Of a DNA stretch of 64,000 bases, positions 9,811 to 32,896 are shown piece after piece. Under the pieces are notes generated by a model. That model made no database searches, was not told the DNA's origin, and saw only the letters and a program-made list of their open reading frames with translations. The stretch is from Parcubacteria bacterium GBS-2 (GTDB taxonomy: Bacteria > Patescibacteriota > Minisyncoccia > Minisyncoccales > GBS-2). Position numbers and translations under genes: made by a program. Where the stretch lies: the NCBI GenBank assembly GCA_001443025.1, contig LEKP01000002.1:28429-92428 (forward strand), read 5' to 3'. Each line of letters opens with the position of its first letter. Within the stretch, counting starts at the first letter, position 1.

Positions 9811-9868
9811 CTTATTCCAATGTTCCTAAGGTCCTTGGAATAATAAATAATATTTTTTGAAATTGGAA
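9811..9868. repeat. intergenic hairpin repeat family, copy 1 (divergent)
   Basis: cttATTCCAAtgttcctaaggtccTTGGAATaataaataatattttttgaaattggaa; related to copies at 26729 and 32838. Confidence 0.5.
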
Positions 9869-9934
9869 TTTTAAATGCTTCTATTGGTAAAGTAAAGGAT
9901 AGGTTGATTAAAAATACTGGTTTGAGTTTCATTT

Positions 9935-10276
9935 TTGAATTTTATAAAATCAAAAAAGATGAAAAAAGGATACAAAGCTGAGTGGGAAGCGAAAAAGATT
10001 TTGTTTAAAAAATATTCAAAAGATTCGATTTTCAAGGTTGCCATTGGGGGGGCAGTTGATTTTTTTATTTTGGGAAAAGGAGGGAAAGTTGAAAAAATTG
10101 TTGAGGTTAAAAAGACAAACAAAAATCAATGGTATCCAACAGAACACGATAAGAAGCAATATCAGGCATTATCTAAGATTCAAAAAAAATTTGATATTCC
10201 AGTCGAATATTGGATTAAAATTAAAGGAAAATGGAATTTTTTGAATCTTCATGAAGTAAAGCAATTCTTTAAATAA
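9935..10276 (+). CDS. Holliday-junction resolvase Hjc-like nuclease (archaeal type)
   Basis: KGYKAEWEAKKIL....VAIGGAVDFFILGKGGKVEKIVEVKKT matches the Hjc pattern G..ER.L......(Asp)...IEVK; possible later start at 9959. Confidence 0.6.
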   Translation: MNFIKSKKMKKGYKAEWEAKKILFKKYSKDSIFKVAIGGAVDFFILGKGGKVEKIVEVKKTNKNQWYPTEHDKKQYQALSKIQKKFDIPVEYWIKIKGKWNFLNLHEVKQFFK

Positions 10277-10291
10277 CAGCTCCTAAAATTA

Positions 10292-11389
10292 ATGAAAAAA
10301 GACTTTACCTTTTTGTTTAGAAAAGAAATAAATGAATACGATTTTGGCGAAGATCATCCCTTTCATGGGAGGAGGGGAGAGGATTTTTTGAATTTTTTAA
10401 AAGAAAAAATAAAGATTGACTTTCCGATTTTGAAAGCAAAAAAAGCAACCGATAAGGATTTGTTTTTAATTTGTGAAAAAGAATACATTGAGTTTACTAA
10501 AAAATATTTTGAGGCAAAAAATAAAGGAGAAGAATTTGATGGTAGATTTTTCTTTTACCATTCTGCTGACAATCTGCCAATTGGAAAGCCAGGAAAAATC
10601 GAAGAAGCGGCAAGATACATAATCGGACAGGCAAAAATGGCCGCCGATTTAATAATGGATGGCAAGTTTAAAAAAGTAATTTCAATTGGAGGAGGATTAC
10701 ATCATGCAAAAAAGAATTTTGGGGAAGGATTTTGTATTTATAATGATGTAGCATTTTGCGCAAAATATTTAATTGAAAAGTATGGTTTAAAAAGAATTTT
10801 AATTTTGGATACTGATGCTCATGCTGGAAACGGAACTTTGGAATATTTTTATGAAGATGAAAGGGTTTTATTTATTGATATTCACCAAGATCCAAGGACT
10901 CTTTATCCTGGAACAGGATTTATTGAACAAAAAGGCTCGGGTAGGGGAGAGGGTTTAAAAATTAACATTCCTTTATCTCCAGAAGCAGGAGATGAGTCTT
11001 ATAGGATGGTTTTTGAAAAAATAATTGAACCAGTAGTCAAGGAATTTAAACCAGAAATTATAATTAGGAATGGTGGCTCTGACCCTCATTTTTCAGATTA
11101 CTTAACAAATCTTGGGCTAACCCTTGAAGGATTTAAAATGATTGGGAAAAAGGTTAGAAATTTAGCTGAATTTTGTGGCGGAAAAGAAATCGATTTGATT
11201 GCTTCTGGATATAATTTGAGAGTTTTACCTTTTGCTTGGGCTGCGTTAATTTCCAGTTTAATTGGGATGGAAGTTGAAATTAAAGAACCAATTACAATGA
11301 AAAAAATTCGAGACCCTATTGAAGAAACGAAAAAAATAATTGATGAAATAAAAAGAGAGTTTAAAAAATATTGGAAATCGCTTTCTTGA
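10292..11389 (+). CDS. histone deacetylase-family (AcuC/acetylpolyamine amidohydrolase-like) deacetylase
   Basis: HHAKKNFGEGFCIYNDVA, ILDTDAHAGNGT and YEDERVLFIDIH: metal and charge-relay motifs of HDAC class. Confidence 0.85.
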   Translation: MKKDFTFLFRKEINEYDFGEDHPFHGRRGEDFLNFLKEKIKIDFPILKAKKATDKDLFLICEKEYIEFTKKYFEAKNKGEEFDGRFFFYHSADNLPIGKPGKIEEAARYIIGQAKMAADLIMDGKFKKVISIGGGLHHAKKNFGEGFCIYNDVAFCAKYLIEKYGLKRILILDTDAHAGNGTLEYFYEDERVLFIDIHQDPRTLYPGTGFIEQKGSGRGEGLKINIPLSPEAGDESYRMVFEKIIEPVVKEFKPEIIIRNGGSDPHFSDYLTNLGLTLEGFKMIGKKVRNLAEFCGGKEIDLIASGYNLRVLPFAWAALISSLIGMEVEIKEPITMKKIRDPIEETKKIIDEIKREFKKYWKSLS

Positions 11390-11959
11390 TTATTCTTCCT
11401 CAACTCTTCTCACGTATTCGCCGGTTTCAGTATTAACCTCAATAATATCCCCAGCTTCTACGAACAACGGAACATTAATTTTTGCCCCAGTTTCTAATGT
11501 TACTTGTTTTGTTCCGGGCTGAGATCTGTCTCCTCTAATCCCAGGCGGGGCTTCAACAACTTTTAATTTTACTTTAATTGGCAACGTAACGTTTATTATT
11601 TTATCTTTGAATTTTAGTCCATCTAAAATTAGTCCAGGCTTCAAAAATTTTACTCCTTCTCCAATTTTTTCTTCTTCCAATTCAAATCTTTTACTTGGAT
11701 TTTCAACTTCACAGAAATTATATTTTCCTCTTTTTTGAAAAATAAACTTTACTGCTACTTTTTCAATTTCTGCTTCTTCAAAGGTTTCGTCTTGGTGAAA
11801 GCTCCTTTCAAAAATTTTTCCATTAACTAAATTTTTAATTTTAACTCTTGCTACTACCACATCCTGAGCTTTTCCAATTTGTTTAAAATCCAAAACTTCG
11901 TACGGTTGTCCGTCTAAAATGAACCTTACTCCTTTTCTTAAATCAAAATAGGTTAGCAT
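11390..11959 (-). CDS. efp: elongation factor P
   Basis: 189 aa; FRKGVRFILDGQPYEVLDF and KPGLILDG motifs typical of EF-P. Confidence 0.9.
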   Translation of the reverse strand: MLTYFDLRKGVRFILDGQPYEVLDFKQIGKAQDVVVARVKIKNLVNGKIFERSFHQDETFEEAEIEKVAVKFIFQKRGKYNFCEVENPSKRFELEEEKIGEGVKFLKPGLILDGLKFKDKIINVTLPIKVKLKVVEAPPGIRGDRSQPGTKQVTLETGAKINVPLFVEAGDIIEVNTETGEYVRRVEEE

Positions 11960-11962
11960 GTT

Positions 11963-12745
11963 TTAAATAAAAAGAAGATTTTCGAAAATTGAAATCAAAA
12001 GCTTTTCAAGATCTAATTCTTCTTTCTCTTTCCTTAACATTTCCTCCTCTAAATTTTCAAGTTTTATTATAGCTTTTACAAAATTTCCTTCAAGCTCTAT
12101 TTCTTTTACCAGATTTTTTTCATCAACCAATAATTTCCCAGAAATTCTTTCAAAGTTTTTAAAAAAGTTGTCAACATTTTCTTTTGAAATTTCCCTTCTC
12201 CATTCAAAAATTCTATCTTTTAATTTTTCTGTGTCAATTTCAAACTCGTAGCCTTTCTCAACTCTTTCAAATTTTCTAAAAACTCCATCTTTCTCTAGAA
12301 TTTCTTTTAATTTCTTTAATTCCTCAACCTCCTCATTTTTCACTTGAATCTTTTTCCGTCCAAAAAATAAATTTTGTAAAAATTGAAATGTTTTCAATGG
12401 AGGCTGAGAACTGATGATTGAATTAATTCTCCAATAAATATCGTTTCCATCAACAACTCCAGAAAGAGTGAAAGAAACGATTGTAGTAGTTTGAATGTTA
12501 ATCTGAGCAAAAATTCTCAATCCTTTTTCAGGTAATTCCACTTCAGGACTTGCTTTTTCCCTTATTTCTTTTAAGGGGCTTTCAACCTTTTCTCTTATTT
12601 CTTTAATCCATTCTTGGCTTTCTTTTTTAGGAAGAGATTGTTGGAAAGTAATTAAAACCAAATATAAGGCAAAAATGAAAAACCCAGCTCTTATCAAAAA
12701 ACCAATAATTTTTAAGAAAAATTCTCTCATTTTTCGATTCTCCAT
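11963..12745 (-). CDS. hypothetical membrane-anchored protein
   Basis: N-terminal TM helix then a charged coiled region; no recognisable motif. Confidence 0.4.
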   Translation of the reverse strand: MENRKMREFFLKIIGFLIRAGFFIFALYLVLITFQQSLPKKESQEWIKEIREKVESPLKEIREKASPEVELPEKGLRIFAQINIQTTTIVSFTLSGVVDGNDIYWRINSIISSQPPLKTFQFLQNLFFGRKKIQVKNEEVEELKKLKEILEKDGVFRKFERVEKGYEFEIDTEKLKDRIFEWRREISKENVDNFFKNFERISGKLLVDEKNLVKEIELEGNFVKAIIKLENLEEEMLRKEKEELDLEKLLISIFENLLFI

Positions 12746-13398
12746 TCAATTTCTGATTCCTTGCCGGCAAATTCTAACCATTCTCCTTCTGGAGAGATCA
12801 CATACCACTTTTTCTTTGTCTCAGACCAAACCATTGGCATCCCTCTATAATATGGTTTTTTAACAATTTCTTTTGGTTTTAGTTTGTCAAGCTCTAACCA
12901 TTTTTTAAACACTGTTTCTATTGCATAATCTAGATTTCTTGATTTTGCCCATTCTGCAACTTTTGCTATTGCTTCTTTTGCTTTTTCAGTTGACCCTGCC
13001 AGTTCTAAAAGCTGCTTTGCAGGTTTTGTATATCTTGAATAAATTATCTCCCGTTTTTTAGCAGATTCTTTTAATTTTTCCAAAGAAATTCCTTTAGTTT
13101 TAAAATAAAAAGTGACAATTTCTCTAATTTTTGTTTTTTCTTTTAAAATCTCGTAATCTTTAATTTTTCCAGTTTTTAAATATTCTTCTATTTTCTTTGC
13201 AATTCTCTTGCCAATACCAGGTAAAGCCTCCAAACCAAAAACTCCCCTTTCTTTATAAATTTTTCCAACATCTTCTTTTAATTGTAAAACTGATTTAGCT
13301 GCTCTTTTGTAAGCGAAAGGTTTTCCTTTTGCGCTATTTATTTCATAAAGTTCTGCCATATGTTTTAAAATTTTTGCAATTTTTTCATTCCTTTTCAT
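12727..13398 (-). CDS. Pol X (Pol beta)-like N-terminal 8-kDa/HhH domain protein, lacking the polymerase palm
   Basis: N-terminus NEKIAKILKHMAELYEINSAK..KPFAYKRAAKSV...LPGIGKRIAKKIEEYLKTGK matches the PolX lyase/HhH consensus; the remaining ~120 aa are unrelated. Confidence 0.5.
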   Translation of the reverse strand: MKRNEKIAKILKHMAELYEINSAKGKPFAYKRAAKSVLQLKEDVGKIYKERGVFGLEALPGIGKRIAKKIEEYLKTGKIKDYEILKEKTKIREIVTFYFKTKGISLEKLKESAKKREIIYSRYTKPAKQLLELAGSTEKAKEAIAKVAEWAKSRNLDYAIETVFKKWLELDKLKPKEIVKKPYYRGMPMVWSETKKKWYVISPEGEWLEFAGKESEIEWRIEK

Positions 13399-13694
13399 AG
13401 TTTTTTTAAAATTTCTTGATAAAAATTCTTTGCTTTTTCTAATTCTTTTTCTCCCTTTTCGGTAATCTGATAAACCCTTCTTCTATTTTCTATTTTACTT
13501 TTCACAAACCCATCTTTTTCAAGTCGATAGAGAACTCTATAGGGCGTTATTTTTCCTGGTTTAAATCCAAAATTCTCATTAATTTTTTTTGGAATATCCC
13601 AGGCGTGAGTACTTTCTTTTTTTAAAATCAAAAGAATATAAATCCAAAGGTTTTCTATTGTATTCGATTTTTTTAATCTTTCAAAAGGAAGCAT
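13395..13694 (-). CDS. PadR-family transcriptional regulator
   Basis: 99 aa winged HTH: LWIYILLIL....YRVLYRLEKDGFV......RRVYQITEKGEKEL. Confidence 0.8.
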   Translation of the reverse strand: MLPFERLKKSNTIENLWIYILLILKKESTHAWDIPKKINENFGFKPGKITPYRVLYRLEKDGFVKSKIENRRRVYQITEKGEKELEKAKNFYQEILKKL

Positions 13695-13695
13695 C

Positions 13696-13723
13696 TTGAC
13701 AAAGTATTTTACGGGCGTAAAAT
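13696..13723 (+). promoter_or_regulatory. sigma70-like promoter for the inositol-phosphate synthase gene (TTGACA-16-TAAAAT)
   Basis: TTGACA at 13696-13701 and TAAAAT at 13718-13723, in a 60-nt divergent intergenic region abutting the padR start. Confidence 0.35.
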
Positions 13724-13756
13724 ATTAAGAAAGGTCGGAGAATAAATTTATAAAAT

Positions 13757-14860
13757 ATGTCAAAAGAAATAAGAATTGCCATAACAGGAGTAGGAAATTG
13801 TGCTTCAAGCCTTGTTCAAGGTTTATTTTATTACAAAAATGTCAAAGATGAAAGAGAGCTGGTTCCTGGGTTAATGCACAATGTTTTGGGTAGATATAAA
13901 ATTTCAGACATTAAAGTTGTTGCTGCTTTCGATATCGATGCAAGGAAAGTAGGGAAGGATGTTTCAGAAGCGATTTTTGCTCCTCCAAATTGCACTAAGA
14001 TTTTTTGTAAAAATGTGCCAAAAATTGGAGTTAAAGTGAAAATGGGACCTGTGTTAGATGGAGTGGCTCCTCATATGAAAGAATATCCAGAAGATAAAAC
14101 GTTCGTAATAGCAAAGAAAAAACCTGTTGATGTAGCAAAAGAATTAAAAAAAACCAGGGCAGAAATTTTAATTAATTATTTACCTGTTGGTTCCCAAAAG
14201 GCGGTAGAGTACTACGCAAACTGTGCATTGAAGGCAAGATGTGCTTTTATTAATTGTATGCCAGTTTTTATCGTTTCTAATAAAAAATGGGCAGAGAGAT
14301 TTGAAAAGAAAAAATTACCTTGCATTGGAGACGATATAAAAAGCCAAGTAGGAGCGACAATAGTTCATAGGACTTTATGTCACCTTTTTACCCAAAGAGG
14401 AGTTATAATCGATCGCTCTTATCAATTAAACTTTGGGGGGAACACAGATTTCCTTAATATGTTAGCTAGAGAAAGATTAAAATCAAAGAAAATTTCAAAA
14501 ACTGAAGCAGTGGAAGCAGAGCTTGCCAAAAGATTAAGTTACGATAATTTACATGTTGGACCTTCAGATTGGATTCCCTGGCTAAAAGATAACAAAATTT
14601 GTTACATCAGGATTGAAGGAAGAAAGTTTGGAAACGTACCAGTTGAACTTGAACTTAAACTTTCCGTTGAAGATTCGCCAAATTCTGCAGGATGTGTGAT
14701 AGACGCAATAAGGTTGGCAAAAATTGCTTTAGATAGAAAAATCGGGGGTCCATTAATTTCAGCCTCTGCTTATTTAATGAAGCATCCTCCGCAACAATTC
14801 ACTGATGAAAAAGCAAGAGAAATGGTCGAAGAATTTATAAAAGGTGAAAGAGAAAGGTAG
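13757..14860 (+). CDS. ino1: myo-inositol-1-phosphate synthase (Ino1 family)
   Basis: N-terminus IRIAITGVGNCASSLVQGLFYYKN is nearly identical to the mycobacterial/archaeal MIPS signature VRVAIVGVGNCASSLVQG; 367 aa. Confidence 0.85.
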   Translation: MSKEIRIAITGVGNCASSLVQGLFYYKNVKDERELVPGLMHNVLGRYKISDIKVVAAFDIDARKVGKDVSEAIFAPPNCTKIFCKNVPKIGVKVKMGPVLDGVAPHMKEYPEDKTFVIAKKKPVDVAKELKKTRAEILINYLPVGSQKAVEYYANCALKARCAFINCMPVFIVSNKKWAERFEKKKLPCIGDDIKSQVGATIVHRTLCHLFTQRGVIIDRSYQLNFGGNTDFLNMLARERLKSKKISKTEAVEAELAKRLSYDNLHVGPSDWIPWLKDNKICYIRIEGRKFGNVPVELELKLSVEDSPNSAGCVIDAIRLAKIALDRKIGGPLISASAYLMKHPPQQFTDEKAREMVEEFIKGERER

Positions 14861-15158
14861 TATGGAACCATTCGAAAGATTTAAAAAATTGAATACTGAA
14901 GGAAATTTATGGATTTACATTTTAAGTTTGGGAAGAGAAATAACCTGCGAAGATGAAGTAAGGAAATTGATCTTTGAGAAATTTGGGTTCTTACCAGGAA
15001 ACATTTTAACAAAAACAGTTTTGTATCGATTAAAAAGAAGAGGTTATATAAAACCAGAAAAATACAAAGGGAAGAAAGCGTTTATCAGAACTGAAAAGGG
15101 AGAGAAAGAGTTGGAAAAAATGAAAGAGTTTTGTAAAGAACTGTTACAAAAAATCTAG
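14844..15158 (+). CDS. PadR-family transcriptional regulator (paralog of 13395-13694)
   Basis: MEPFERFKKLNTEGNLWIYILSL...VLYRLKRRGYI...TEKGEKELEKMKEF parallels the upstream PadR almost motif-for-motif. Confidence 0.75.
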   Translation: MKEKGSMEPFERFKKLNTEGNLWIYILSLGREITCEDEVRKLIFEKFGFLPGNILTKTVLYRLKRRGYIKPEKYKGKKAFIRTEKGEKELEKMKEFCKELLQKI

Positions 15159-15716
15159 TTATTCAAATTTTTCTACCGTGAATCGATAGATTAGAAACCT
15201 CTCATTTTGAGGATTGATTTTTGCTTTTTGACAAGCAATTAAAATTTGTTTTTCGATTGTATCAACGCCTTCTAAATCTGGAAGTAAAACCCCAGTTTTT
15301 GGAACAAAATGGCCATTAAAAATAACATCACCTGACGGAGAAATTGGTACCGTTTTTACAATTATTCCGTATTTTTTGGGATCGAGTTCTGAAATATCTT
15401 TTACCAATTCAGGCTCGCTTAAAATATACACAGTATAAGAAAGGTAGGGGAGTTCTTCTTTTTGAACTGGCCCGAATCTCCAATCTTCAGTAGCAGCAGC
15501 AATGGCGTTATAGATGACTTCTTCTGCAATATTTTGTCTAGTTGGTAAATAAGTTCCAATACAGCCTCGTAATTCCCCCTTTTTTTCAATAGTCACAAAC
15601 GCCCCCGCTCTTCTTTCTAAAAATTCTTTTGGTAAATTTTCAGGCAGAAAAAGGACTTTACCTTCTTTGACATATTTTTCGACTGCTAATTTTGCCAATA
15701 AAACTAAAGGGTGCAT
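15159..15716 (-). CDS. AMMECR1 domain protein
   Basis: GAFVTIEKKGELRGCIGT motif of AMMECR1. Confidence 0.85.
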   Translation of the reverse strand: MHPLVLLAKLAVEKYVKEGKVLFLPENLPKEFLERRAGAFVTIEKKGELRGCIGTYLPTRQNIAEEVIYNAIAAATEDWRFGPVQKEELPYLSYTVYILSEPELVKDISELDPKKYGIIVKTVPISPSGDVIFNGHFVPKTGVLLPDLEGVDTIEKQILIACQKAKINPQNERFLIYRFTVEKFE

Positions 15717-15790
15717 AATTTCATTTTAACCTCTAAAATCCAATAAAAAAAGCCAAAAATTTTTGGCGATTTGTGCTAAAAATTAACGGT

Positions 15791-17208: not shown

Positions 17209-17334
17209 TTTTTTTCACCTCCTTTGAAGTTCTACTTTATTTTTTATCAATTTTATTGTTTTTTAGCAATATTTTCTATGCCGTCATTAAAGCTGTATAA
17301 ATAACAATGAGTTTTTAGTTCAAATTTATATTTT

Positions 17335-18084
17335 TTAAATTGGTAAATTAAAAAATTTTTTGACGTTTTCATCAGTGATTTTATTGATTTCATTGAAATC
17401 TAGCTTTTTTATTTTTGCAATCTCTCTCGCTATAATTTCTACACTTAAAGGATCGTTTCTTTTCCCTTCTCCTAACCAAGGGGAGTCTGTCTCAAGTAAT
17501 ATTTTTCCCAATGGCATATCTCTAACAATTTTCTTTATTTTTTTGCTTTTTAGCAAAGTTGTGTTTACTGAAATTGACCAACCATTTTTCATTACTCGTG
17601 GTAATAATTCCTTTGCAGTAAAAAAATGCATTAAAACATTTTTTTCTCCAAATTTTTCTAAAATTTCAATCGCTTCTAAAAATGCTTTTCTGGCGTGAAT
17701 TACCAATGGTTTTTTAAGATCTCTCGCTAATTGGATAAATTTTTTAAAAAGTTCCTTTTGTTTCTTCCTCCACTCAGCTTCTTCAATGATAAAATCCAAT
17801 CCTGTTTCTCCGATTCCAACTATTTTTTCTTTATTTTCCTCAATTTTTTTGAAAAATTCATCCACTTTTAAATGATCAATTTCTTTAATATATTCAGGAT
17901 GAATTGAAACTGTGGCAAAAACAAAATTTTTGTATTTTTCAACTAATTCCATCGTCAAATCAAAATCATCGGGATGGCAACAACAAGTAATCACTGCTTT
18001 TAATTTCTCTTTGCACTTTTCAATTACCTCATCCCTATCTTTTTCATAATCTTTTTGCTCTAAGTGACAATGCACATCAATCAT
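17335..18084 (-). CDS. tatD: TatD-family metal-dependent DNase/hydrolase
   Basis: MIDVHCHL start, HxH and conserved His/Glu/Asp positions of TatD; 249 aa. Confidence 0.85.
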   Translation of the reverse strand: MIDVHCHLEQKDYEKDRDEVIEKCKEKLKAVITCCCHPDDFDLTMELVEKYKNFVFATVSIHPEYIKEIDHLKVDEFFKKIEENKEKIVGIGETGLDFIIEEAEWRKKQKELFKKFIQLARDLKKPLVIHARKAFLEAIEILEKFGEKNVLMHFFTAKELLPRVMKNGWSISVNTTLLKSKKIKKIVRDMPLGKILLETDSPWLGEGKRNDPLSVEIIAREIAKIKKLDFNEINKITDENVKKFFNLPI

Positions 18085-18510
18085 TTTAATTTTTTAATTA
18101 TATTGACATTTTCACATCTCCGCAAATGTGCAAATGTCGAATTTTTGTTGGGAGATTTTTCTTTTAAAAGAAGTTAATTTTAGTTTTTAATCGAGAATTG
18201 GTTTTATCTGTAGATATCTTTTTGATGACCTACTTCAATTAACTTTATAACTTCAAGATGCAAAAAATTGAAAAATCAGTCGTCATTCGCGAGTAATTCT
18301 GAAAGAATAAAAACCAAAAAGTGGACCAGTTAATAGTATGTAAAAGAGAATGAAATGGATTCTTTTGAAGTAGTTCCAATTTTGTTGCTAATTTATTTTG
18401 AATTTTAGCTGGAAGTTTCTTAACTAATTTTAAAAAATTTTTGCTATAAATAATAAGTACTTCCAGTACTCCTTTTCTGATCCTTCAAAATTTGGACTTT
18501 TTTTCTAAAA

Positions 18511-18590
18511 TTTTCCAAATTTTCTCTCTAAGCTTTTGTTTTTCTTTAATTTTCCAAATTTTCTCTCTAAGCTTTTGTTTTTCTTTTTCA
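18511..18590. repeat. tandem direct repeat (2 x ~40 bp) in a 510-nt non-coding region
   Basis: ttttccaaattttctctctaagcttttgtttttctttaa occurs twice in tandem. Confidence 0.8.
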
Positions 18591-18597
18591 ATTAACA

Positions 18598-23741: not shown

Positions 23742-23742
23742 G

Positions 23743-24797: not shown

Positions 24798-25373
24798 ATG
24801 CGAAGAAGAATTTTCATTGCCATAAATTTACCAGAAAAAATTAAGGAAGAATTGGTGTCTTTTCGAGAAAAATATTCAGAATTGCCAGCTCGATGGGTAA
24901 AACCTGAAAATTTGCATATTACCTTAGCTTTTTTAGGATACGTGAAAGATGAGGATATTCCAAAAATTATTGAAATTACAAAAAATGTCGCCTCAAAACA
25001 TAATCCCTTTTCAATAAAAATTGTCAAAATCACTTATGGTCCGCCGAAAGTTTCTCCTCCCAGGATGATCTGGGCGATTGGGGAAAAAAATGAAAGCTTG
25101 TGGAAGTTACAAGAAAATTTGAAAAATGCTTTAATGGAAATGAAAATTCCTCAATTGGAAGAAGAAGAGGGAAGAGGATTTATTCCTCATATTACCTTAG
25201 CCAGAATTAGAAAATTGGAATTCAGACAAATGGAACCTGAAGAAAGGCCAGAAATTGATGAAGATGTAAATTTTTCTTTTGAAGTAAAAAGTATTGAAAT
25301 AATGGAAAGCCATCTAAAAAGAGGAGGAGCAGAATATACTCTATTAGAAAGTTTTCCTTTGGCAAAATCATGA
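24798..25373 (+). CDS. thpR: RNA 2',3'-cyclic phosphodiesterase (2H family, LigT/ThpR)
   Basis: Two H-x-T/S-x motifs: HITLAFLG and HITLARI; start placed at MRRRIFIAIN (the ORF-track N-extension is antisense to the radical SAM gene). Confidence 0.85.
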   Translation: MRRRIFIAINLPEKIKEELVSFREKYSELPARWVKPENLHITLAFLGYVKDEDIPKIIEITKNVASKHNPFSIKIVKITYGPPKVSPPRMIWAIGEKNESLWKLQENLKNALMEMKIPQLEEEEGRGFIPHITLARIRKLEFRQMEPEERPEIDEDVNFSFEVKSIEIMESHLKRGGAEYTLLESFPLAKS

Positions 25374-26680
25374 AAATTCATTTTATTGGTATTGGGGGAA
25401 TTGGTGTTTCGGCACTGGCTAGATATTATTTGACTCAAGGACATAAAGTTTCAGGTTCTGATTTAACCTCTTCTGAAATTACAAAGGCTCTTGAAAAATT
25501 AGGAGCCAAAATTTTTATTGGAAAGCATAGAGCGAAAAATCTATCAAAAGACGTTAATTTGGTAGTTTATAGCCCAGCGATTCTTGAATACAATCCTGAA
25601 TTAAAAAAAGCAAGAAAACTCAAAATTAAGTGCCAAAGTTACCCCCAAGCTCTTGGAGAATTAACAAAAACTCATTTTACCATTGCAGTTTGCGGATCCC
25701 ATGGAAAATCAACGGTTGCTGGAATGATTGGACTAATTTTAACTAAAGCAAAGTTTGATCCAACAGTAATCTTGGGAACAAAATTGAGAGAGTTTGGAGA
25801 TTCAAACTGTAGAGTAGGAAAGTCGGAATATTTAGTTATCGAAGCTGACGAATACAAAGAATCTTTTTTAAATTACTGGCCAAAAATCATCGTTTTACTA
25901 AACATTGATTATGATCACCCAGATTATTTTAAAAATTTAGACCATTACATTTTAGCTTACAAAAAATTTGTTTCTCATTTACCAAAAGATGGATTTTTAA
26001 TAGCAAACAGAGATGATAAAAATACTTTTTCAACTTTCAAAAAGAAAAAGGCAATTTGGTATTCATTAAAAGAAAAAGAGTGTAAAAAATTAAAAAAAAT
26101 TTTAAAAGTTCCAGGAGAGTTTAATGTCTCAAACGCAGTAGCTGCTTTAAAAGTTACTCGAATTTTAAAAATTCCAGATAAAATTTCTTTCAGAGCTCTC
26201 TCTCAATATAAAGGCTCTTGGCGCCGTTTTGATGAAAAAATTGTCCGTATACCAAATATGAAATACCCAATACGAATCATCAATGATTATGGCCACCATC
26301 CAACACAAGTCAAAGTCACTTTAGAGGCAGCCAGACAAAAATACAAAAACAAAAAGATCTGGTGTATTTTCCAACCCCATCAATATCAAAGAACTTATTA
26401 TCTTTTTGATGAGTTTGTAAAAGTTTTTAAGAGCCACTCAATCGATAAAGTAATTATCACTGACATTTATACAGTTTCTGGAAGAGAAAGCAAAGAAATA
26501 ATGAAAAAAGTGAATGCTCCAAAATTGGTAAAAGCAGTGAACAAAGAAAATGTGAAATATCTTCCAAAAGAAAAAATCATTCCTTATTTGAAGAAAAAAT
26601 TAAAGGGAGGCGAAATAGTAATAATAATGGGGGCAGGTGACATTTATAATTTGAGCTTGAAATTTAAAAATACTCAATAA
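25370..26680 (+). CDS. murC: UDP-N-acetylmuramate--L-alanine ligase
   Basis: MKIHFIGIGGIGVSALA Rossmann start, GSHGKSTV P-loop, Mur ligase middle/C domains. Confidence 0.9.
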   Translation: MKIHFIGIGGIGVSALARYYLTQGHKVSGSDLTSSEITKALEKLGAKIFIGKHRAKNLSKDVNLVVYSPAILEYNPELKKARKLKIKCQSYPQALGELTKTHFTIAVCGSHGKSTVAGMIGLILTKAKFDPTVILGTKLREFGDSNCRVGKSEYLVIEADEYKESFLNYWPKIIVLLNIDYDHPDYFKNLDHYILAYKKFVSHLPKDGFLIANRDDKNTFSTFKKKKAIWYSLKEKECKKLKKILKVPGEFNVSNAVAALKVTRILKIPDKISFRALSQYKGSWRRFDEKIVRIPNMKYPIRIINDYGHHPTQVKVTLEAARQKYKNKKIWCIFQPHQYQRTYYLFDEFVKVFKSHSIDKVIITDIYTVSGRESKEIMKKVNAPKLVKAVNKENVKYLPKEKIIPYLKKKLKGGEIVIIMGAGDIYNLSLKFKNTQ

Positions 26681-26728
26681 AAAAAATTTTTATCAGCTTT
26701 TCTCAAGGAATTCAGCTCCTTAATCGTA

Positions 26729-26787
26729 CTCATTCCAATGTTCTTAAGAACAGTGGAATAACAGAGAATGTTTTTGAAAATTGTCAA
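26729..26787. repeat. intergenic hairpin repeat family, copy 2
   Basis: ctcATTCCAATGTTCTTAAGAACAGTGGAATaacagagaatgtttttgaaaattgtcaa; 28-bp near-perfect palindrome; about 85% identical to the copy at 32838. Confidence 0.6.
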
Positions 26788-26800
26788 ATAATGGACTAAT

Positions 26801-26844
26801 AATTTCACAATTCACAATTGTGAAATTGTGAAAAACTGAAATTG
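26801..26844. promoter_or_regulatory. nested palindrome TTTCACAATTCACAATTGTGAAATTGTGAAA (hairpin/bidirectional terminator or operator)
   Basis: Lies in the convergent murC/trmB intergenic region; the TTCACA-N2-TGTGAA core recurs at 6990-7003 and 32805-32820. Confidence 0.4.
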
Positions 26845-26866
26845 TTAAGTTTCTTTGAGGTTCTCA

Positions 26867-27481
26867 TTAGAACAATAAAATAATTTTTGATGATTTTGAG
26901 GGAAAAAAGGCAATTTTATCAAAAATAATCAAGCTTCCACTTAAACCTGGAATGTTTGTTTTCTTTACTTTTATTTGCCCCAATCTTTTTTTGATTGATT
27001 GGTAAATTTTTTTCCTCTCTCTTTGGCCAATAGGATTTAACTCTGGATTGACGATCAAAATTTCGGGGGTGGAGGAGAGAGAAAGAATTTCGATGAATGC
27101 CTTTTTTCCTTCTTTTCCTTGAAAAATTCTAATCCCTTCTTTTTCTCTCGAATACTTTGCTTCCAAAATCGAAACAATTCTGGTAAATTCTCTTTCCTTT
27201 TCTTCGATTTCTCTCTTTTTGATTCTTAAAAATCTCAAAATTTGGCTTGGGGATTGAGCGACAAAAAGTCTCTTTTTTCCTCTTTTCGTTTCAACAAATA
27301 ATCCCTTTTCTTCTAATTTTTTTACAATCTCATAAACAGTCGGTCTTGGAATTTTCACTTTTTCTGCAATATTTTTTATTGGACTTGGCCCTAATTCCAA
27401 ACCCGCCAAATAAACTTTGACCTCCTTTTCTTTCAAGCCCAATTTTTTCAATTCCAACTCAATTGGTAATTCAAGAACCAT
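26867..27481 (-). CDS. TrmB-family transcriptional regulator
   Basis: N-terminal wHTH: LGLKEKEVKVYLAGLELGPSPIKNIAEKVKIPRPTVYEIVKKLEEKGLF. Confidence 0.7.
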   Translation of the reverse strand: MVLELPIELELKKLGLKEKEVKVYLAGLELGPSPIKNIAEKVKIPRPTVYEIVKKLEEKGLFVETKRGKKRLFVAQSPSQILRFLRIKKREIEEKEREFTRIVSILEAKYSREKEGIRIFQGKEGKKAFIEILSLSSTPEILIVNPELNPIGQRERKKIYQSIKKRLGQIKVKKTNIPGLSGSLIIFDKIAFFPSKSSKIILLF

Positions 27482-27524
27482 ATTGCAATTTTATTTTAGT
27501 TTACTAAAAAACTAAGGTCAACAC

Positions 27525-27571
27525 AAAAAATGTCAAAAAAACTTGACAAAATTCTTTGACCCAATAAGATG
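27525..27571 (+). promoter_or_regulatory. promoter cassette (TTGACA-16-TAAGAT), copy 1
   Basis: aaaaaatgtcaaaaaaaCTTGACAaaattctttgacccaaTAAGAT ends 8 nt before the RR start codon, implying a (near-)leaderless transcript. Confidence 0.4.
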
Positions 27572-27579
27572 AAATTGAA

Positions 27580-27942
27580 ATGCCAAAAATTTTAATAATT
27601 GAAGATGAAAAGGTTTTAGCCCAAATGTACAAAGAAAAATTTGAAAAAGAAGGGTTTGAAGTTTATTTAGCCTTTACTTCAAATGAGGGACTAGATTTGG
27701 CGAAAAAAGAAAAACCAGACTTGATTTTATTGGACATTCTATTACCGGGAAAAGATGGAATTTCTTTTCTTAAATGGCTCAAAAATGAACTTCAAATTTC
27801 ATCAATTCCAGTAGTTGTCCTTTCAAATTACGATGACCCAAAAACAAAAAAAGAGGCATTTGAATTAGGAGTGAAAGAATATTTATTGAAAACCGATTAT
27901 ACTCCACAACAACTAGTAGAAAAAATAAGAAAATATCTCTAA
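27580..27942 (+). CDS. receiver-only response regulator, paralog 2
   Basis: MPKILIIEDEKVLAQMYKEKFEKEGFEV...DLILLDILLP...EYLLKTDYTPQQL; 120 aa. Confidence 0.85.
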   Translation: MPKILIIEDEKVLAQMYKEKFEKEGFEVYLAFTSNEGLDLAKKEKPDLILLDILLPGKDGISFLKWLKNELQISSIPVVVLSNYDDPKTKKEAFELGVKEYLLKTDYTPQQLVEKIRKYL

Positions 27943-27948
27943 TTTTTT

Positions 27949-27995
27949 CGAAAAATGTCAAAAAATCTTGACAAATTTTTTTGATTTGCTAAATA
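27949..27995 (+). promoter_or_regulatory. promoter cassette (TTGACA-16-TAAATA), copy 2
   Basis: cgaaaaatgtcaaaaaatCTTGACAaatttttttgatttgcTAAATA; same cassette as 27525; followed by the strong SD AAGGAGGTG and a TTG start at 28033. Confidence 0.4.
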
Positions 27996-28032
27996 AAAAT
28001 ATGTACCTTAAAAAAAAGGAGGTGATGGGAGA

Positions 28033-28797
28033 TTGAATTATGAAGAGCTGGTTAAAAGGAATTTTCCCCTAATCTCTAGAGAAACTCAAGAAAAGATAAG
28101 GAAGCTGAAAGTGGCAATTGTAGGAGTGGGAGCGTTGTCTTTTGTTCCCGCAATGTTAGCTAGATTAGGTGGAGAAAATTTCGTGCTAATTGATGGAGAT
28201 ATCATCGAAGCACACAACATGAATCACCAAATCTACACGGTACACCATATTGGAAAACCTAAAGTAGAAGCTCTGAAAGAAATAATTCTTTCTATCAACC
28301 CCCAAGCCAACGTCATAGCGTTGTCGAGTTTTGTAACACTTGAGAATTTGGAAGAGATATGGGAGAAGTATCTCTCTACAGCAAGGGTCATTGTTGACGG
28401 AATAGATCCGGTAACTCCTCTAGGGGGAATATTAATTTCATTGGAGTTAGCTCGGAAAGCGAAAGAAAATGAAATAGTGTTTCTATATCCGCTTGATATT
28501 GGGCATGGCGCTATTCTTTTGACTCAACTAGACGAACTTTCCTTAAAAGGAGAGGAGCCTCTGGAAATTCTCTTAAATCTAATGCAAAAGGCTCAGCAGT
28601 TCATTAACTTCCCCCAAGACTACGAAGAGATAATAATGAAAACTCTGAAGGAAGAAATTCATTACCCTCAAACAATACTATCTGCAATCAGTGCCTCCAT
28701 TTTAGTAACCACTTGTATACTTAACCTAGTTCAAGGGAAATCACTGCCCAAGCTCCTTTATCTCGATCTTGCCAATCTTTGCTTTATACACAAATAG
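28033..28797 (+). CDS. ThiF/MoeB/E1-like adenylyltransferase-fold protein
   Basis: KVAIVGVGALS Rossmann loop and DGDIIEAHNMNHQIY (E1 D.D.vE.SNLnRQ-like); TTG start after a strong SD; fewer Lys codons than neighbouring genes. Confidence 0.6.
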   Translation: MNYEELVKRNFPLISRETQEKIRKLKVAIVGVGALSFVPAMLARLGGENFVLIDGDIIEAHNMNHQIYTVHHIGKPKVEALKEIILSINPQANVIALSSFVTLENLEEIWEKYLSTARVIVDGIDPVTPLGGILISLELARKAKENEIVFLYPLDIGHGAILLTQLDELSLKGEEPLEILLNLMQKAQQFINFPQDYEEIIMKTLKEEIHYPQTILSAISASILVTTCILNLVQGKSLPKLLYLDLANLCFIHK

Positions 28798-28908
28798 TCA
28801 ATAATAAGGGATAGTACTACATTTTGTAGTCTATCCCTCTTTTTTAAAAACTTTAAAATGTTTGATAAAATATATTAATAAGGTCTATTTTCAAGGAATT
28901 TCGAAACC

Positions 28909-30444
28909 ATGGCAAAAATAGGAGAACTAATGCAAAAATTCATAATGTCGAACCCAGATAGGGCGTTAAAATTTTTTGCTTCAAGATCTGCAGAATGGTG
29001 GGAAAGGAGGGGAGAGAAGAAGGCTCTTCAAACGTTCCATGCAACTGCAGAGAGGGTCCCAGCTTATAAAGATTTTTTAAAAAAACATGGGATAACTGAT
29101 CATACAAAAATTCAAACGTTAGAAGACTTTAAGAAATATGTACCACTTCTTACTAAAGAAAATTACATTTTGGCTTATGATCTCAAAGAAAGATTAGCTG
29201 TTCCTTATGAGGATTTATTTACTATTTCTACTTCTTCTGGAACCATGGATAAACCTATTTATTGGCCGCGAACAGCATTTCAAGATAAAATGACTTCACG
29301 TTATTTTGAACTAATTTTTCGCGATGTTTATCAAATTCATAAACTTTCAACTTTAGCGATAGTGGCTTTTTCTTTAGGAAATTACATAGCCGGAGAATTG
29401 GTTAATTTTGTTGTGAAAGATATTGCCTTGCGCAATAAAAATAAGGTGAGTGTTGCTACGCCAGGTTCAGACCTTGAGGGAGTTTTACAAATCTTAACAG
29501 GCTTTCTAGATAAGTATGACCAGACCGTTATTTTCTGTTATCCTTCTTTGTTTAGAATTTTAATAGAAGAAGGAAAAAAGGTAGGAATAAATTGGAAAAA
29601 TTATAACGTCAAATGGTGTTATGGGGGGGAACCGTGTCCTCCAAAAATGAAAGCAAAAATTAAAGCGGAGGTTTTAGGAGAAAAAGAAGATTATACGTTT
29701 ATTCTCGCTGTTTATGGGGCGGCCGACGCAGGAGGAATTGGTTTTGGGAATCCATTCACTAATTTATTGGAGGAAATAATTCAAACAAATCCAAAAATCC
29801 AAGAAGGACTAAGAAAAAGAGGGATTGAATTAGAGGGCTCTTTAGTACAAGTAAACCCTTTGGCATATTTTATAGAAGAGGAAGATGACTATCTAATAAT
29901 TACAACCGGGGGAGCGGTTCCACTTGTAAGATATAATATCAAAGACCTGGGAGAAATTATTCTTTTTGAAGAAATGAATACTATTCTGAAAGAGGGTGGA
30001 ATAAATATTCAAGAACTTTTGAGAGAGAAATTGCACTCATATTATTTAATGAAACAACCTTTAGTTTTAATAAAGGGTAGGGAGGCTGCAGTTTCTTTAG
30101 ATGGAGCTAACGTTTTTCATTATCAAGTCAAAGAGATTATAGAAAAATCTCCTCACTTTAACAGTGTAAAAATTGGGAAAAAAGAGTTAGAGGGAGGAAA
30201 TGTAAAATTTGCAGTATATTTGGAATTGAAAAAAGATATTCAGCTTTCAAGTAATGAAATAGAAAAGTTGAAAAAAGAGTATCGTGATAAGATTCTTAAT
30301 CATCTGTTAGAAGTAAATTACGATTTCAGAAGATCTTATCAAGATAATCCTACTTTGTGCGATCCGGAAATTATTATTAGAAAATTTGGAGAAAAAGAAT
30401 TTGCTCCTACTAAATCTGGTAAATTTAAGCCAATAGTTATATAA
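28909..30444 (+). CDS. adenylate-forming enzyme (PaaK / coenzyme F390 synthetase / GH3-like)
   Basis: N-terminus RVPAYKDFLKKHGI..IQTLEDFKKYVPLLTKENY resembles PaaK; AMP-motif TSSGTMDKPIYWP; VRYNIKDLGEI hinge. Confidence 0.6.
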   Translation: MAKIGELMQKFIMSNPDRALKFFASRSAEWWERRGEKKALQTFHATAERVPAYKDFLKKHGITDHTKIQTLEDFKKYVPLLTKENYILAYDLKERLAVPYEDLFTISTSSGTMDKPIYWPRTAFQDKMTSRYFELIFRDVYQIHKLSTLAIVAFSLGNYIAGELVNFVVKDIALRNKNKVSVATPGSDLEGVLQILTGFLDKYDQTVIFCYPSLFRILIEEGKKVGINWKNYNVKWCYGGEPCPPKMKAKIKAEVLGEKEDYTFILAVYGAADAGGIGFGNPFTNLLEEIIQTNPKIQEGLRKRGIELEGSLVQVNPLAYFIEEEDDYLIITTGGAVPLVRYNIKDLGEIILFEEMNTILKEGGINIQELLREKLHSYYLMKQPLVLIKGREAAVSLDGANVFHYQVKEIIEKSPHFNSVKIGKKELEGGNVKFAVYLELKKDIQLSSNEIEKLKKEYRDKILNHLLEVNYDFRRSYQDNPTLCDPEIIIRKFGEKEFAPTKSGKFKPIVI

Positions 30445-30457
30445 TTTAATTTAAATA

Positions 30458-32029
30458 ATGGATTTGTATTTCTTGCTCTATCAGGTTTTAGTAATTGTTA
30501 TTGATTTTTCAGGATTAGGAATTGGAATTTTGGTATTACAAAAAGATATTAAAAACCCAACCAACCAGCTCTTTTTTTTAATGACTCTTTTCGCTCTAGG
30601 TTGGATTACTTTTGCGTATCTTTCTGACTTTCCATTTCTATTTCAAAATGCGCTTTTATTTAATAGAATTATTTATTTTTTTCTTTCTCTTTTTTTTATA
30701 ACTGTTTATTTTTTTAGCTTTTACTTTCCTCGCAAAGAAAAAATTTCTCCATTTTTCCGCATAATCAATAAATTTTATTTAATTTTTGGGATCTTTATTA
30801 GCATCTTAGCGCTTTTTACTTCCTTAATAATTCGAGATGTTAGAAAAACTCCTTGGGGAACTGACCTGGTACTTGGTGAATTATTTCCCCTTTTCGCTTT
30901 CTTAGGATGTGGATGGATTGCCTCTCTCTTTATTTTAATTAAGAAATTTTTCAAACTCCCTTCTCACGAAAAACTACAAATAAAATATTTTATAATGGGT
31001 TTTTTAATTTTTCTCTTCGCAAATATTATCTTTAACGTAATTGTGCCTCATTTGCGGGGTACTTATGAATATTATTGGTTTGGCAATCTTTCCATAATTT
31101 TCTTTCTTGGATTTACAGCCTATGCAATTTTTGCAAAACACCTTTTTGGTATTGAAGTAATTTTAACTGAAATTTTAGTTGGAATAATTGGATTATTGCT
31201 AATAGTTCAAATTTTTACAGCGCCGACAATTTTGTGGAGATTTATTAATATCTTGATTTTTATCTTATTTTGCATTTTTGGTTATTTTTTAATTCGGAGT
31301 GTTTTGAGAGAAATTAAGTTGAGAGAGGAAATAGAAAAAATCAGTCAAGCAAAAACAGAATTCATTTCGATTACTTCCCATCAATTGAGGACTCCGCTTT
31401 CTGCTATTAAAGGGTATTTATCAATGATCTTGGAGGGTTCTTATGGACAATTACCAGAGAAAGTAAAAGAAAAAATGGAAAATGTTTTTCAATCGAATGA
31501 AAGGTTAATAAAATTGGTAAACGATATTTTAAACGTCTCAAAGATTGAAGCAGGGGAAATAGAAATGAATTGGGAGAGGGTGGATTTGAGAGAAATAATT
31601 AAAGAAGTAATCAATGAACTTTCTATAAAAGCAAAAGAAAAGAATCTTTATTTGAATTTTGAAGAACCAAAAGAGGTTCCAAAAGTTTTGTTAGATAGCG
31701 AGAAAATAAGGCAAGTAATTTTGAATTTGATTGATAATGCAATAAGGTACACCCAAGAAGGAGGAGTTAATGTTAAATTGCAAATGTCAAAAGGTAAATT
31801 GCAAATTGTGATAGCAGATACTGGTGAGGGATTGACAAAAGAGGAAAAAGAAAAACTTTTTAAAAGATTTTCAAGGGGAACTGCTGGAACAAAATTTTGG
31901 ACAGAGGGAGCAGGACTTGGGCTTTACATTGTAAGAAGGTTTGTTGAAATGCATAATGGAAAAATTTGGGCTGAGTCTGAGGGAAGGGGAAAAGGATCGA
32001 CTTTCTTTGTTGAATTGCCAATAAAATGA
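30458..32029 (+). CDS. sensor histidine kinase with polytopic (~7-8 TM) N-terminal sensor
   Basis: HisKA H-box ITSHQLRTPLSAIKGY; N box NLIDNAIRYT; G boxes DTGEG and GGAGLGLYIV. Confidence 0.9.
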   Translation: MDLYFLLYQVLVIVIDFSGLGIGILVLQKDIKNPTNQLFFLMTLFALGWITFAYLSDFPFLFQNALLFNRIIYFFLSLFFITVYFFSFYFPRKEKISPFFRIINKFYLIFGIFISILALFTSLIIRDVRKTPWGTDLVLGELFPLFAFLGCGWIASLFILIKKFFKLPSHEKLQIKYFIMGFLIFLFANIIFNVIVPHLRGTYEYYWFGNLSIIFFLGFTAYAIFAKHLFGIEVILTEILVGIIGLLLIVQIFTAPTILWRFINILIFILFCIFGYFLIRSVLREIKLREEIEKISQAKTEFISITSHQLRTPLSAIKGYLSMILEGSYGQLPEKVKEKMENVFQSNERLIKLVNDILNVSKIEAGEIEMNWERVDLREIIKEVINELSIKAKEKNLYLNFEEPKEVPKVLLDSEKIRQVILNLIDNAIRYTQEGGVNVKLQMSKGKLQIVIADTGEGLTKEEKEKLFKRFSRGTAGTKFWTEGAGLGLYIVRRFVEMHNGKIWAESEGRGKGSTFFVELPIK

Positions 32030-32074
32030 AATTGACATTGTTGTTTTGAAGATTTACTATAAAAGTAGAAAAGC

Positions 32075-32308
32075 ATGGCTCGGAAAATCACAGAAAAATT
32101 GACTAAAAAGGAAATTGAAAAACTTCTTAACAAACAAACCAATGTTATTCTTGATGCAGTCGATGAAAGACTATTAAAGCAGCAAAAATATATCGACTAT
32201 AGATTTTCCCTTTTAGAAAAAAGATTAGAAAAAGTGGAGATCAGATTAAATCAAAAGATTGCACTGCTTGTTACGACTTTAGATAAATTCTTAAAAAGAT
32301 TGTACTGA
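32075..32308 (+). CDS. hypothetical small coiled-coil protein
   Basis: 77 aa, heptad-like charged sequence between the HK and RR genes. Confidence 0.3.
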   Translation: MARKITEKLTKKEIEKLLNKQTNVILDAVDERLLKQQKYIDYRFSLLEKRLEKVEIRLNQKIALLVTTLDKFLKRLY

Positions 32309-32402
32309 TTTAGAAGATGAATTTACTTTGATGAAAGCTGAAATAAAGAAAATTAAGGCAGTGCTAAAAGAAAAATTGGGAGTAAACATGGATTAAAGTT
32401 CC

Positions 32403-32768
32403 ATGAAGAAAATTTTAATAATTGAGGATGAAAAGGTTTTAGCAGAGATGTACAAGGAGAAATTGGAAATGGAAGGCTTTGAAGTGTGTTTGGCTTTTGA
32501 TGTGAAAGAGGGAATAGAATTGGTAAAAAGAGAAAGACCTGATCTGATTTTGCTTGATATTTTGCTCCCCGTCGAAAACGGGGTTTCTTTTTTAAAAAGG
32601 CAAAAAGAAGATAAAGATATATCTGAAATTCCAGTAATCGCTTTTTCAAACTACGATGATCCAAGAGTAAAGAAAGAAGCAATTGAACTTGGGGTAAAAG
32701 AGTATTTGATCAAGACAAACTATACTCCAACAGAAATCACTGAGAAAATAAAAAAATATCTGAAGTGA
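32403..32768 (+). CDS. receiver-only response regulator, paralog 3
   Basis: MKKILIIEDEKVLAEMYKEKLEMEGFEV...DLILLDILLP...EYLIKTNYTPTEI; about 65% identical to paralog 2. Confidence 0.85.
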   Translation: MKKILIIEDEKVLAEMYKEKLEMEGFEVCLAFDVKEGIELVKRERPDLILLDILLPVENGVSFLKRQKEDKDISEIPVIAFSNYDDPRVKKEAIELGVKEYLIKTNYTPTEITEKIKKYLK

Positions 32769-32837
32769 ACGATATTTTCGGTTTTTTATCTAAAATTTCA
32801 TTGTTTCACAATTGCGAAAAACTGAAATTTTGAAATA

Positions 32838-32896
32838 CTTATTCCAATATTCTTAAAAACATTGGAATAGCAGAGAATATTTTTTAAAATTGTCAA
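32838..32896. repeat. intergenic hairpin repeat family, copy 3
   Basis: cttATTCCAATATTCTTAAAAACATTGGAATagcagagaatattttttaaaattgtcaa. Confidence 0.6.

Follow-up and report, generated by a model that had tools for sequence, protein, structure and literature searches.

We analyzed a 64,000-nucleotide (nt) stretch of contig LEKP01000002.1 from Parcubacteria bacterium GBS-2 (here, the window, taken at its full length; G+C content, 32.6%) and found in it a dispersed element, termed the A module, that consists of a 28-bp palindrome followed by a tail of ~30 nt (~60 nt in total) and is common to three intergenic regions. A further, decayed palindrome is embedded in the murD gene. The four features are as follows.

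9811..9871, plus strand: A module copy 1; palindrome at 9814-9841, degenerate; tail diverged
26729..26789, plus strand: A module copy 2; palindrome at 26732-26759; tail at 26760-26789
32838..32898, plus strand: A module copy 3; palindrome at 32841-32868; tail at 32869-32898
38939..38966, plus strand: palindrome copy 4, decayed; ATTCCAAAATGCTCAAGGATATTGGAAT, 4 mismatches, in murD (38212-39558)

An initial annotation of this DNA had reported a hairpin repeat at the three intergenic positions. This is borne out: the pattern ATTCCAATRTTCYTAARRNCNNTGGAAT matches the window exclusively at 9814-9841, 26732-26759, and 32841-32868 and not once in 100 shuffles, and a repeat finder recovered a single family comprising 9809-9869, 26727-26787, and 32836-32896. 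Copies 2 and 3, for which ~85% identity had been given, are indeed similar, the figure being slightly low (89% over 61 nt); between copies 1 and 2, identity is 72% over the same length. Copies 2 and 3 share the exact tail AGAGAATRTTTTTKAAAATTGTCAA, which has diverged but can be recognized in copy 1 (20 of 28 positions). The 28-bp palindrome proposed earlier holds for copies 2 and 3, each of which has one mismatch to the family consensus (T22->G in copy 2), but not for copy 1, whose center has decayed and is non-palindromic; with 4 mismatches to the consensus, copy 1 retains only the outer arms, ATTCCAA/TTGGAAT. The murD copy is also close to the family, with no equally close match (4 mismatches) in 300 simulated windows.

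Each intergenic copy starts shortly after the stop codon of a plus-strand gene, as had been noted (35, 49, and 70 nt for copies 1, 2, and 3, respectively), and all three occupy some of the largest intergenic gaps of the window. Copy 1 lies between a radical SAM gene (8910-9776) and a small PDDEXK-like gene; copy 2 is flanked by the convergent genes for MurC (25370-26680, plus strand) and a TrmB-like protein (minus strand); and copy 3 separates a gene for a CheY-like receiver, a response regulator (RR; 32403-32768), from an HD/YfbR-like gene (33014-33628), being placed 118 nt upstream of the latter. Contigs near-identical to the window are present in several metagenomes. The genes of the window (Mur ligases, a TrmB-like regulator) and the names of their homologs are those of Patescibacteria/Parcubacteria.

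Conservation of the palindrome across phyla

A one-genome-per-species scan with ATTCCAATNTTNNTAANNNNNNTGGAAT returned 78 stretches, ~30 of which (from Flavobacteria, Citrobacter, and others) have an unrelated center and are chance-like; the remaining 48 loci constitute the family and carry a near-invariant center, giving the sequence ATTCCAATRTTCTTAAGAAYATTGGAAT. They belong to many classes of Patescibacteria, Elusimicrobia, a Pacearchaeota metagenome-assembled genome (MAG), MAGs labeled Gammaproteobacteria, Omnitrophota (at least 6 loci within one MAG), a GC-rich Tepidisphaeraceae MAG, and a Planctomycetia MAG. The palindrome is always preceded by a pyrimidine and followed by a purine (30 bp with these Y/R flanks); the bases at the flanking positions ±2 can pair in 66% of the sites and those at ±3 in 55%, and in a few sites the palindrome is extended by up to 9 variable bp. 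As regards placement, 22 sites are in tandem, 8 in convergent, and 2 in divergent intergenic regions, and many are inside genes. The near-invariance of this sequence across phyla, including GC-rich genomes, argues for its recognition by a sequence-specific protein. The description of a dispersed structured element in the initial annotation thus stands, and both things on which it had made the family depend, further copies and conservation in relatives, were found: copies occur in murD and, at orthologous and non-orthologous loci, in relatives, and related sites number in the hundreds across phyla.

The initial annotation had also offered a terminator/attenuator family or a small RNA, and neither suggestion is supported. 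An RNA-level element, i.e., a terminator, attenuator, or 3'-end stabilizer in the transcript of the upstream gene or else a small RNA, would accord with the position of four independent A loci (after the radical SAM, murC, and RR genes and, in other organisms, after truB), all of which lie 10-73 nt past a co-oriented stop codon with the palindrome stop-proximal. It would likewise accord with stems that variable but complementary flanks can lengthen by as much as 9 bp and with minus-strand folding z-scores of -2.7 and -3.2 for copies 2 and 3. However, the stem is AT-rich, no U-tract abuts it (the T-run starts ~10 nt past its end), and 0 terminator-like sites were called in the three regions. 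The plus-strand folding z-scores are unremarkable, with copies 1 and 3 folding no better than shuffles, and folding of the downstream leaders gave no significant structure except in the copy 2 stretch, which contains the B palindrome described below. Searches with Rfam 15 yielded only a tRNA at the gathering threshold and, at E ≤ 1 in 26600-33100, a chance match to mir-542 (E = 0.41). Moreover, copy 1 retains its arms with the central pairing lost, and the stem has the same sequence across phyla apart from one covarying position, which is atypical of RNA helices and typical of protein sites. An RNA element also leaves unexplained both the intragenic copies and the bracketing of a gene for a DNA-binding protein (see below), and we consider it improbable.

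An ArsR/SmtB-fold regulator bracketed by the palindrome

Clustering of the neighboring genes at the 48 loci revealed one conserved family, present within 1.5 kb in 12 of them, whose ~90-aa members match only HTH_5/HTH_24 in Pfam. The AlphaFold model of the regulator (predicted local distance difference test score, 91) has the canonical ArsR/SmtB fold (template modeling score of 0.86 to 3gw2, CadC, CzrA, and HlyU), an assignment with which sequence searches agree; no metal-ligand motif was identified in it. More than 870 clusters (90% identity) match it at E ≤ 1e-5, the 120 best listed being 64-100% identical to the query, and they are named only generically (transcriptional regulator, winged-helix, hypothetical protein).

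Every regulator gene examined has palindromes at both its 5' and 3' ends, among them 5 of 5 regulator genes sampled from the protein side (P0081, P0048, P0023, P0072, and P0012). In one protein subfamily, the final nine codons (…ILKFLRTLE*) are made up by the 3' site and correspond to the best-conserved columns; in the other, the site overlaps or trails the stop codon in a different frame. Thus, the position of the 3' site is kept while its frame differs, which points to a constraint at the level of DNA. On a hot-spring contig (L107; 32.6% G+C, from the same metagenome as L090, a truB locus described below), the regulator gene is bracketed by two palindromes that both have tails of the window type, …TAGAAATTTGTCAAG… and …GGAATGATTTTAAATTTTGTCAAATGG…, the latter matching the tail consensus at 22 of 32 positions. 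This indicates that the modules of the window are copies of the regulator's own control region.

The palindrome had no exact match in IMG/VR and none at blastn sensitivity in PLSDB and INPHARED, and plasmid ArsR proteins reached at most 37% identity; a viral, plasmid, or phage origin has no support. We found no description of the palindrome sequence, the encoded peptides, or the concept in the literature library searched, and the palindrome/regulator pair is apparently undescribed so far.

One locus (L098, 9796-10411) has six palindromes around a single regulator gene, three upstream, one at the coding end, and two downstream, with spacings of 56-62 nt both in the upstream pair at 9887/9943 and among the three copies on the 3' side. 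Five of these palindromes have an asymmetric left arm, ATTCTCAAATTC, and the copy at the 3' end of the gene reads GTTCTCAAATTC; the set suggests local duplication or concerted evolution. A CRISPR-like mini-array with this spacing was considered and rejected, as no cas genes were called in the 20-kb locus and one repeat overlaps the coding end of the regulator.

Promoter-like geometry and a proposed mechanism

Upstream of the regulator genes (14 loci), the TTGGAA arm of the palindrome has a perfect TATAAT 16-18 nt further on in 5 cases and TAnnnT in 8, and the spacer to the -10 box peaks at 17 nt when all sites are pooled. This predicted layout is that of a classic autorepressor operator overlapping the -35 box. 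In the window, TTGGAA (9835-9840) and TGAAAT (9858-9863) are separated by 17 nt in copy 1, GTGGAA (26753-26758) and GAAAAT (26776-26781) by 17 nt in copy 2, and TTGGAA (32862-32867) and TAAAAT (32885-32890) by 17 nt in copy 3; all of these -35/-10 calls are consensus matches and not mapped start sites, and copies 1 and 2 are weaker than copy 3.

Autorepressors of the ArsR/SmtB type (SmtB, CzrA, CadC, and HlyU-type) act at inverted-repeat "12-2-12" operators that overlap their own promoters. The system described here resembles them in the fold of the protein, in the palindromic operator of similar length (28 bp), and in the placement of a site over the regulator's own -35 box. It differs from them in the near-invariance of the palindrome across phyla, in a second site that invariably lies at, or overlaps, the regulator gene's 3' end, and in the extra palindromes at unrelated genes and within open reading frames (ORFs), with the window itself being devoid of the regulator gene.

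With moderate confidence, and reading from the DNA sequence, we interpret the window copies as double-stranded DNA operator/promoter modules of an ArsR/SmtB-fold regulator that were copied to intergenic sites, and not as RNA elements. The palindrome would be the operator of a small winged-helix repressor of this fold, bound by a dimer or a pair of dimers; its right arm, TTGGAA, could serve as the -35 box, and the tail would supply a -10-like hexamer 17 nt on (TAAAAT, GAAAAT, or TGAAAT), followed by TTGTCAA. Since the operator would overlap the -35 box, bound repressor would occlude RNA polymerase. In the lineage of the window, the module would be a copy of the palindrome-plus-tail control region of the regulator gene, duplicated to further intergenic sites after the radical SAM, murC, and RR genes, where the dispersed A modules sit in mosaics with two other units (B and C, see below) and are gained and lost between close relatives. 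This interpretation draws on the repeat family, its conservation across phyla, the bracketing of the regulator, the -35/-10 geometry found there, the shared tail, and a conservation of the module above that of neighboring coding DNA (see below); from these we infer protein binding at the palindrome, initiation of transcription from the tail, and repression.

Several observations weigh against it. The hexamers in the window tails match the -10 consensus weakly (4-5 of 6 positions), and -10-like boxes of their own occur 7-11 nt from the ATG of the HD, PDDEXK-like, and RR genes, with the A modules lying at least 100 nt upstream of these boxes. The native promoter-like -10 regions are as follows.

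33000-33013: upstream of the HD gene
9940-9959: upstream of the PDDEXK-like gene
27543-27579: upstream of the RR gene

Such a spacing suggests leaderless or very short-leader mRNAs in the organism of the window. Further, copy 2 is directed into the 3' end of a convergent gene, and palindromes across phyla are often convergent (8 versus 2 divergent) or intragenic, so that many family members cannot be promoters. A coherent regulon was sought and rejected, the Pfam families of 35 downstream genes being heterogeneous. Finally, searches of the 64-kb window and of the loci fetched from relatives, by tblastn and with the hidden Markov model of the regulator family, found no member, which leaves the presence of the regulator in this genome unproven.

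Other candidates that we rejected include a regulator at 48084, which is spurious and inside a protease gene; the TrmB-like neighbor as the cognate binder, given that three relatives (L100-L102) keep the gene with no palindrome within ±10 kb; the similarity of the TrmB-like winged helix-turn-helix in the regulator searches, which is generic; a minus-strand promoter based on a perfect TTGACA in the tail, which has no acceptable -10 box at 16-19 nt; and the shared 9-mer TGAAATTGT as a general promoter motif, which is not enriched.

Gain, loss, and mosaic arrangement in relatives

Metagenomes were scanned with the right arm plus the tail as the query, and further relatives were recovered via the TrmB-like and MurD proteins. 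A relative with ~84% identity has the orthologue of copy 3 (L085, L089), L103 and L104 conserve the copy after murC (orthologues of copy 2), and other organisms have a palindrome plus tail at a different locus, after truB (L086, L087, and L088/L090). The genes that follow the murC copy in L103 (CYTH/MazG-like cargo) and L104 (an aminotransferase) are co-oriented with it, which explains the orphan orientation of copy 2 in the window. Between the window and L104, identity amounts to 85% for the A module and to 73% for the adjacent 3' coding DNA of murC, and non-orthologous copies of the module are 85-98% identical. Conservation above that of the neighboring coding DNA argues for function.

The A module also shows insertion polymorphism. 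The window and L085/L089 have copy 3, L104, with an intergenic region of 68 nt, lacks it, and in L103 exactly 36 nt, i.e., the palindrome, are missing from this locus with the tail kept. No target-site duplication was seen when filled and empty sites were compared (window versus L103 and L104), the flanks being inverted and not direct. The MITE-like (miniature inverted-repeat transposable element) nature suggested earlier is therefore right in part: the presence/absence among relatives, the mosaics, and the location at gene 3' ends fit it, but there are no extra terminal inverted repeats, target-site duplications, or transposase. A classical MITE is not supported, as the only inverted repeat is the palindrome itself, with no target-site duplication and no transposase-encoding autonomous relative.

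The second palindrome that had been noticed beside copies 2 and 3 is indeed there, forming part of what we call the B unit.

26810..26845, plus strand: B unit by copy 2; palindrome TTCACAATTGTGAA then AATTGTGAAAAACTGAAATTGT; downstream of the A module
32804..32833, plus strand: B unit by copy 3; TTTCACAATTGCGAAAAACTGAAATTTTGA; upstream of the A module

Compared with copy 2, A and B have thus changed places at copy 3. The B palindrome TTTCACAATTGYGAAA (26810-26825 and 32804-32819) has a one-mismatch copy at 6989-7004, where TTTCACA(A/G)TTGTGAAA lies 3 nt upstream of the ATG of an rsmE-like methyltransferase gene; this palindrome may serve a different regulator, for which the adjacent TrmB-like gene offers a candidate binder, or form part of a leaderless-type promoter. 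A third palindromic unit, C (GATATTTGCACATTTGCGCAATTGTGCAAAT), is found between A and B in relatives (L103, 13940-13975; L104, ~680-715; L086; and L088), and a C-like motif (CACATCTCCGCAAATGTGCAAATG) occurs in the window upstream of a TatD-like gene (18108-18137). Altogether, the three units occur in the orders A-B, B-A, and A-C-B at non-orthologous loci, and A modules act like mobile or unstable mosaics, a behavior akin to that of repetitive extragenic palindromic (REP) sequences and bacterial interspersed mosaic elements (BIMEs). Two paralogous single-domain RR genes with 72% DNA identity (27568-27867 and 32391-32690) also lie near these modules, one 0.8 kb after copy 2 and the other just before copy 3.

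In L103, a close relative whose TrmB-like protein is 92% identical to that of the window, ~4 kb of extra genes lie exactly at the copy 2 locus (10696-14568 versus 26681-26866 in the window), with aminoglycoside-resistance-like, CYTH, MazG-like, SLOG/LDcluster4, PfkB, and AstE-like products. The copy 2 locus is a variable cargo hotspot.

Differences in gene content after the murC copy among the window, L103, and L104 raise the alternative that the palindrome is a site for a Xer-like tyrosine recombinase with an 11-6-11 core (ATTCCAATATT-CTTAAG-AATATTGGAAT) bordering exchangeable modules, as in pdif. The palindrome fits this geometry, a 6.1-kb two-component/TrmB segment lies between copies 2 and 3, and a Phage_integrase (tyrosine-recombinase family) gene lies in the L104 neighborhood. 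However, the center is fully symmetric and hence confers no directionality, the variable cargo of L103 is bounded by one site only, and copies occur within essential genes. No recombinase is consistently linked to the palindrome, the linked gene being that of the ArsR-like regulator, and multiple identical chromosomal sites would be destabilizing. Cores of the Xer/dif type are expected singly at the terminus or in pairs that bound modules; the window has 4 copies within 29 kb. We regard a recombination site as very improbable.

Palindromes inside genes and a selfish alternative

The murD copy is in frame and encodes YSKMLKDIGI. At the same site, the MurD proteins of relatives have YSNVLKNIGI, which is the translation of the canonical palindrome (the L104 copy has 2 mismatches), and a distant MurD homolog (P0339) is without a 17-aa segment at this position. 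In other MAGs, canonical palindromes are inside further genes, with perfect 28-bp copies as follows.

L037: AlaRS
L032: LTD protein
L056: DinB
L076: IscS-like
L043: MiaA
L011: ArgRS
L028: MnmE, from a GC-rich Planctomycetota MAG
L090: unknown gene

All of the coding copies (9 of 9) are in one frame and encode (Y/H)SN(V/I)LKNIG(I/M). Against solved structures, the net change in length is +8 aa in MiaA, +7 in IscS, +3 in MnmE, and +1 in DinB; the DinB copy stands in place of native codons and is not an insertion, and simple transposition therefore does not fit.

These copies bear on the alternative that the palindrome, alone or as A-C-B, is a selfish unit comparable to REP/BIME sequences or Rickettsia palindromic elements (RPEs), spread by insertion or gene conversion without gene-specific regulation here. 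The winged-helix protein would then be an associated binding or "domesticating" factor, as the REP-associated tyrosine transposases (RAYTs) are for REPs. This is partly compatible with the operator/promoter interpretation, and we rate it as possible, short of probable. It would account for the canonical in-frame copies within AlaRS, ArgRS, MnmE, MiaA, IscS, DinB, LTD, and MurD genes (9 in the same frame), for the alignment gaps opposite the palindrome residues relative to the MiaA and IscS structures, which are consistent with indels, and for the heterogeneity of the downstream genes. The gain and loss of copy 3 (absent from L104; palindrome-only deletion in L103), the variable mosaic order at non-orthologous loci, the bias to 3' ends and convergent regions (tandem, 22; convergent, 8; divergent, 2), and the flanking of the regulator gene by units, as of RAYT genes by REPs, point the same way. 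Conversely, there is no associated transposase or nuclease, the linked protein being a simple DNA binder of 90 aa; target-site duplications were not seen; the palindrome in DinB overwrites native codons; no copies were found in IMG/VR, PLSDB, and INPHARED; the A module, including its tail, is better conserved than neighboring coding DNA; and the copy number seen is low, with the scan of a complete 680-kb Parcubacteria genome giving a single 8-kb stretch (L023) with two copies. A REP/BIME- or RPE-like selfish component likely exists beside the proposed operator role, the two being non-exclusive.

A broader proposal, which we advance tentatively and hold to be rather unlikely, is that of a palindrome and its guardian, a cross-phylum unit accompanied by an ArsR-like binder in ultra-small and uncultivated lineages (the candidate phyla radiation, DPANN, Omnitrophota, Elusimicrobia, and others). 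The 28- to 30-bp unit would spread without a transposase, via gene conversion or template switching, and would land intergenically, in essential genes (in one tolerated frame), and as the last nine codons of the gene for its binder. Since each arm has an outward-facing -35 box, every new copy would be a potential promoter, held in check by the binder. The three modules of the window and the murD relic would then be products of this spread.

Comparison with known systems

The REP/BIME elements of Proteobacteria and their RAYT genes, reportedly treated by Gilson, by Nunvar, and by Bertels and Rainey, are short extragenic palindromes near gene 3' ends that form mosaics, flank an associated gene, and vary in presence among relatives, all of which applies to the palindrome described here. 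Unlike in those systems, the associated gene encodes a 90-aa winged-helix binder (RAYTs are HUH, IS200/IS605-like tyrosine transposases), the copy number seen is low (REPs number in the hundreds), the distribution is cross-phylum (REPs are species specific), and copies also occur in frame inside genes. This last trait is shared with RPEs, which are selfish DNA of ~100-150 bp found in frame in protein-coding genes; in both cases, palindromes inside conserved housekeeping genes are kept as extra peptide segments. The unit described here is, however, only 28-30 bp (10 codons), overwrites codons in DinB, and is tied to a dedicated DNA-binding protein.

The CIRCE operator (controlling inverted repeat of chaperone expression) of HrcA, with its 9-N9-9 structure, is conserved across bacterial phyla and controls a heat-shock regulon (groE, dnaK). 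It provides a parallel for a palindromic operator that remains nearly unchanged in very distant phyla together with its repressor, but here the genes downstream are heterogeneous and sites also occupy non-promoter positions. Putative mobile promoters, reportedly described by Matus-Garcia et al. in 2012 as "promoter propagation in prokaryotes," are likewise homologous promoter-like segments before non-homologous genes, as is the A segment after the radical SAM, murC, RR, and truB genes. The latter differs in that its operator is defined and belongs to one particular regulator family.

Almost nothing is known of how genes are regulated in Patescibacteria and other uncultivated lineages with small genomes, and an operator of 28 bp that is conserved nearly base for base across phyla, together with a compact regulator family, constitutes a testable protein-DNA pair. 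The palindromes within housekeeping genes and at the C terminus of the binder pose the question of how short palindromes overwrite coding DNA without a transposase. For annotation, post-gene hairpins of the A type should not be taken by default as terminators or small RNAs.

Other features of the window

The largest gene-free gap of the window (18085-18597; 513 nt) has no Rfam hit and ends in a tandem duplication of ~40 nt (aattttccaaattttctctctaagcttttgtttttctt twice, at about 18511-18590). Two ORFs contain internal repeats: a tandem 183-nt repeat with 77% identity (641-1006) lies inside the ORF at 614-1612, and three 48-nt repeats (60080-60214) lie inside an ORF of 1152 aa (60005-63463).

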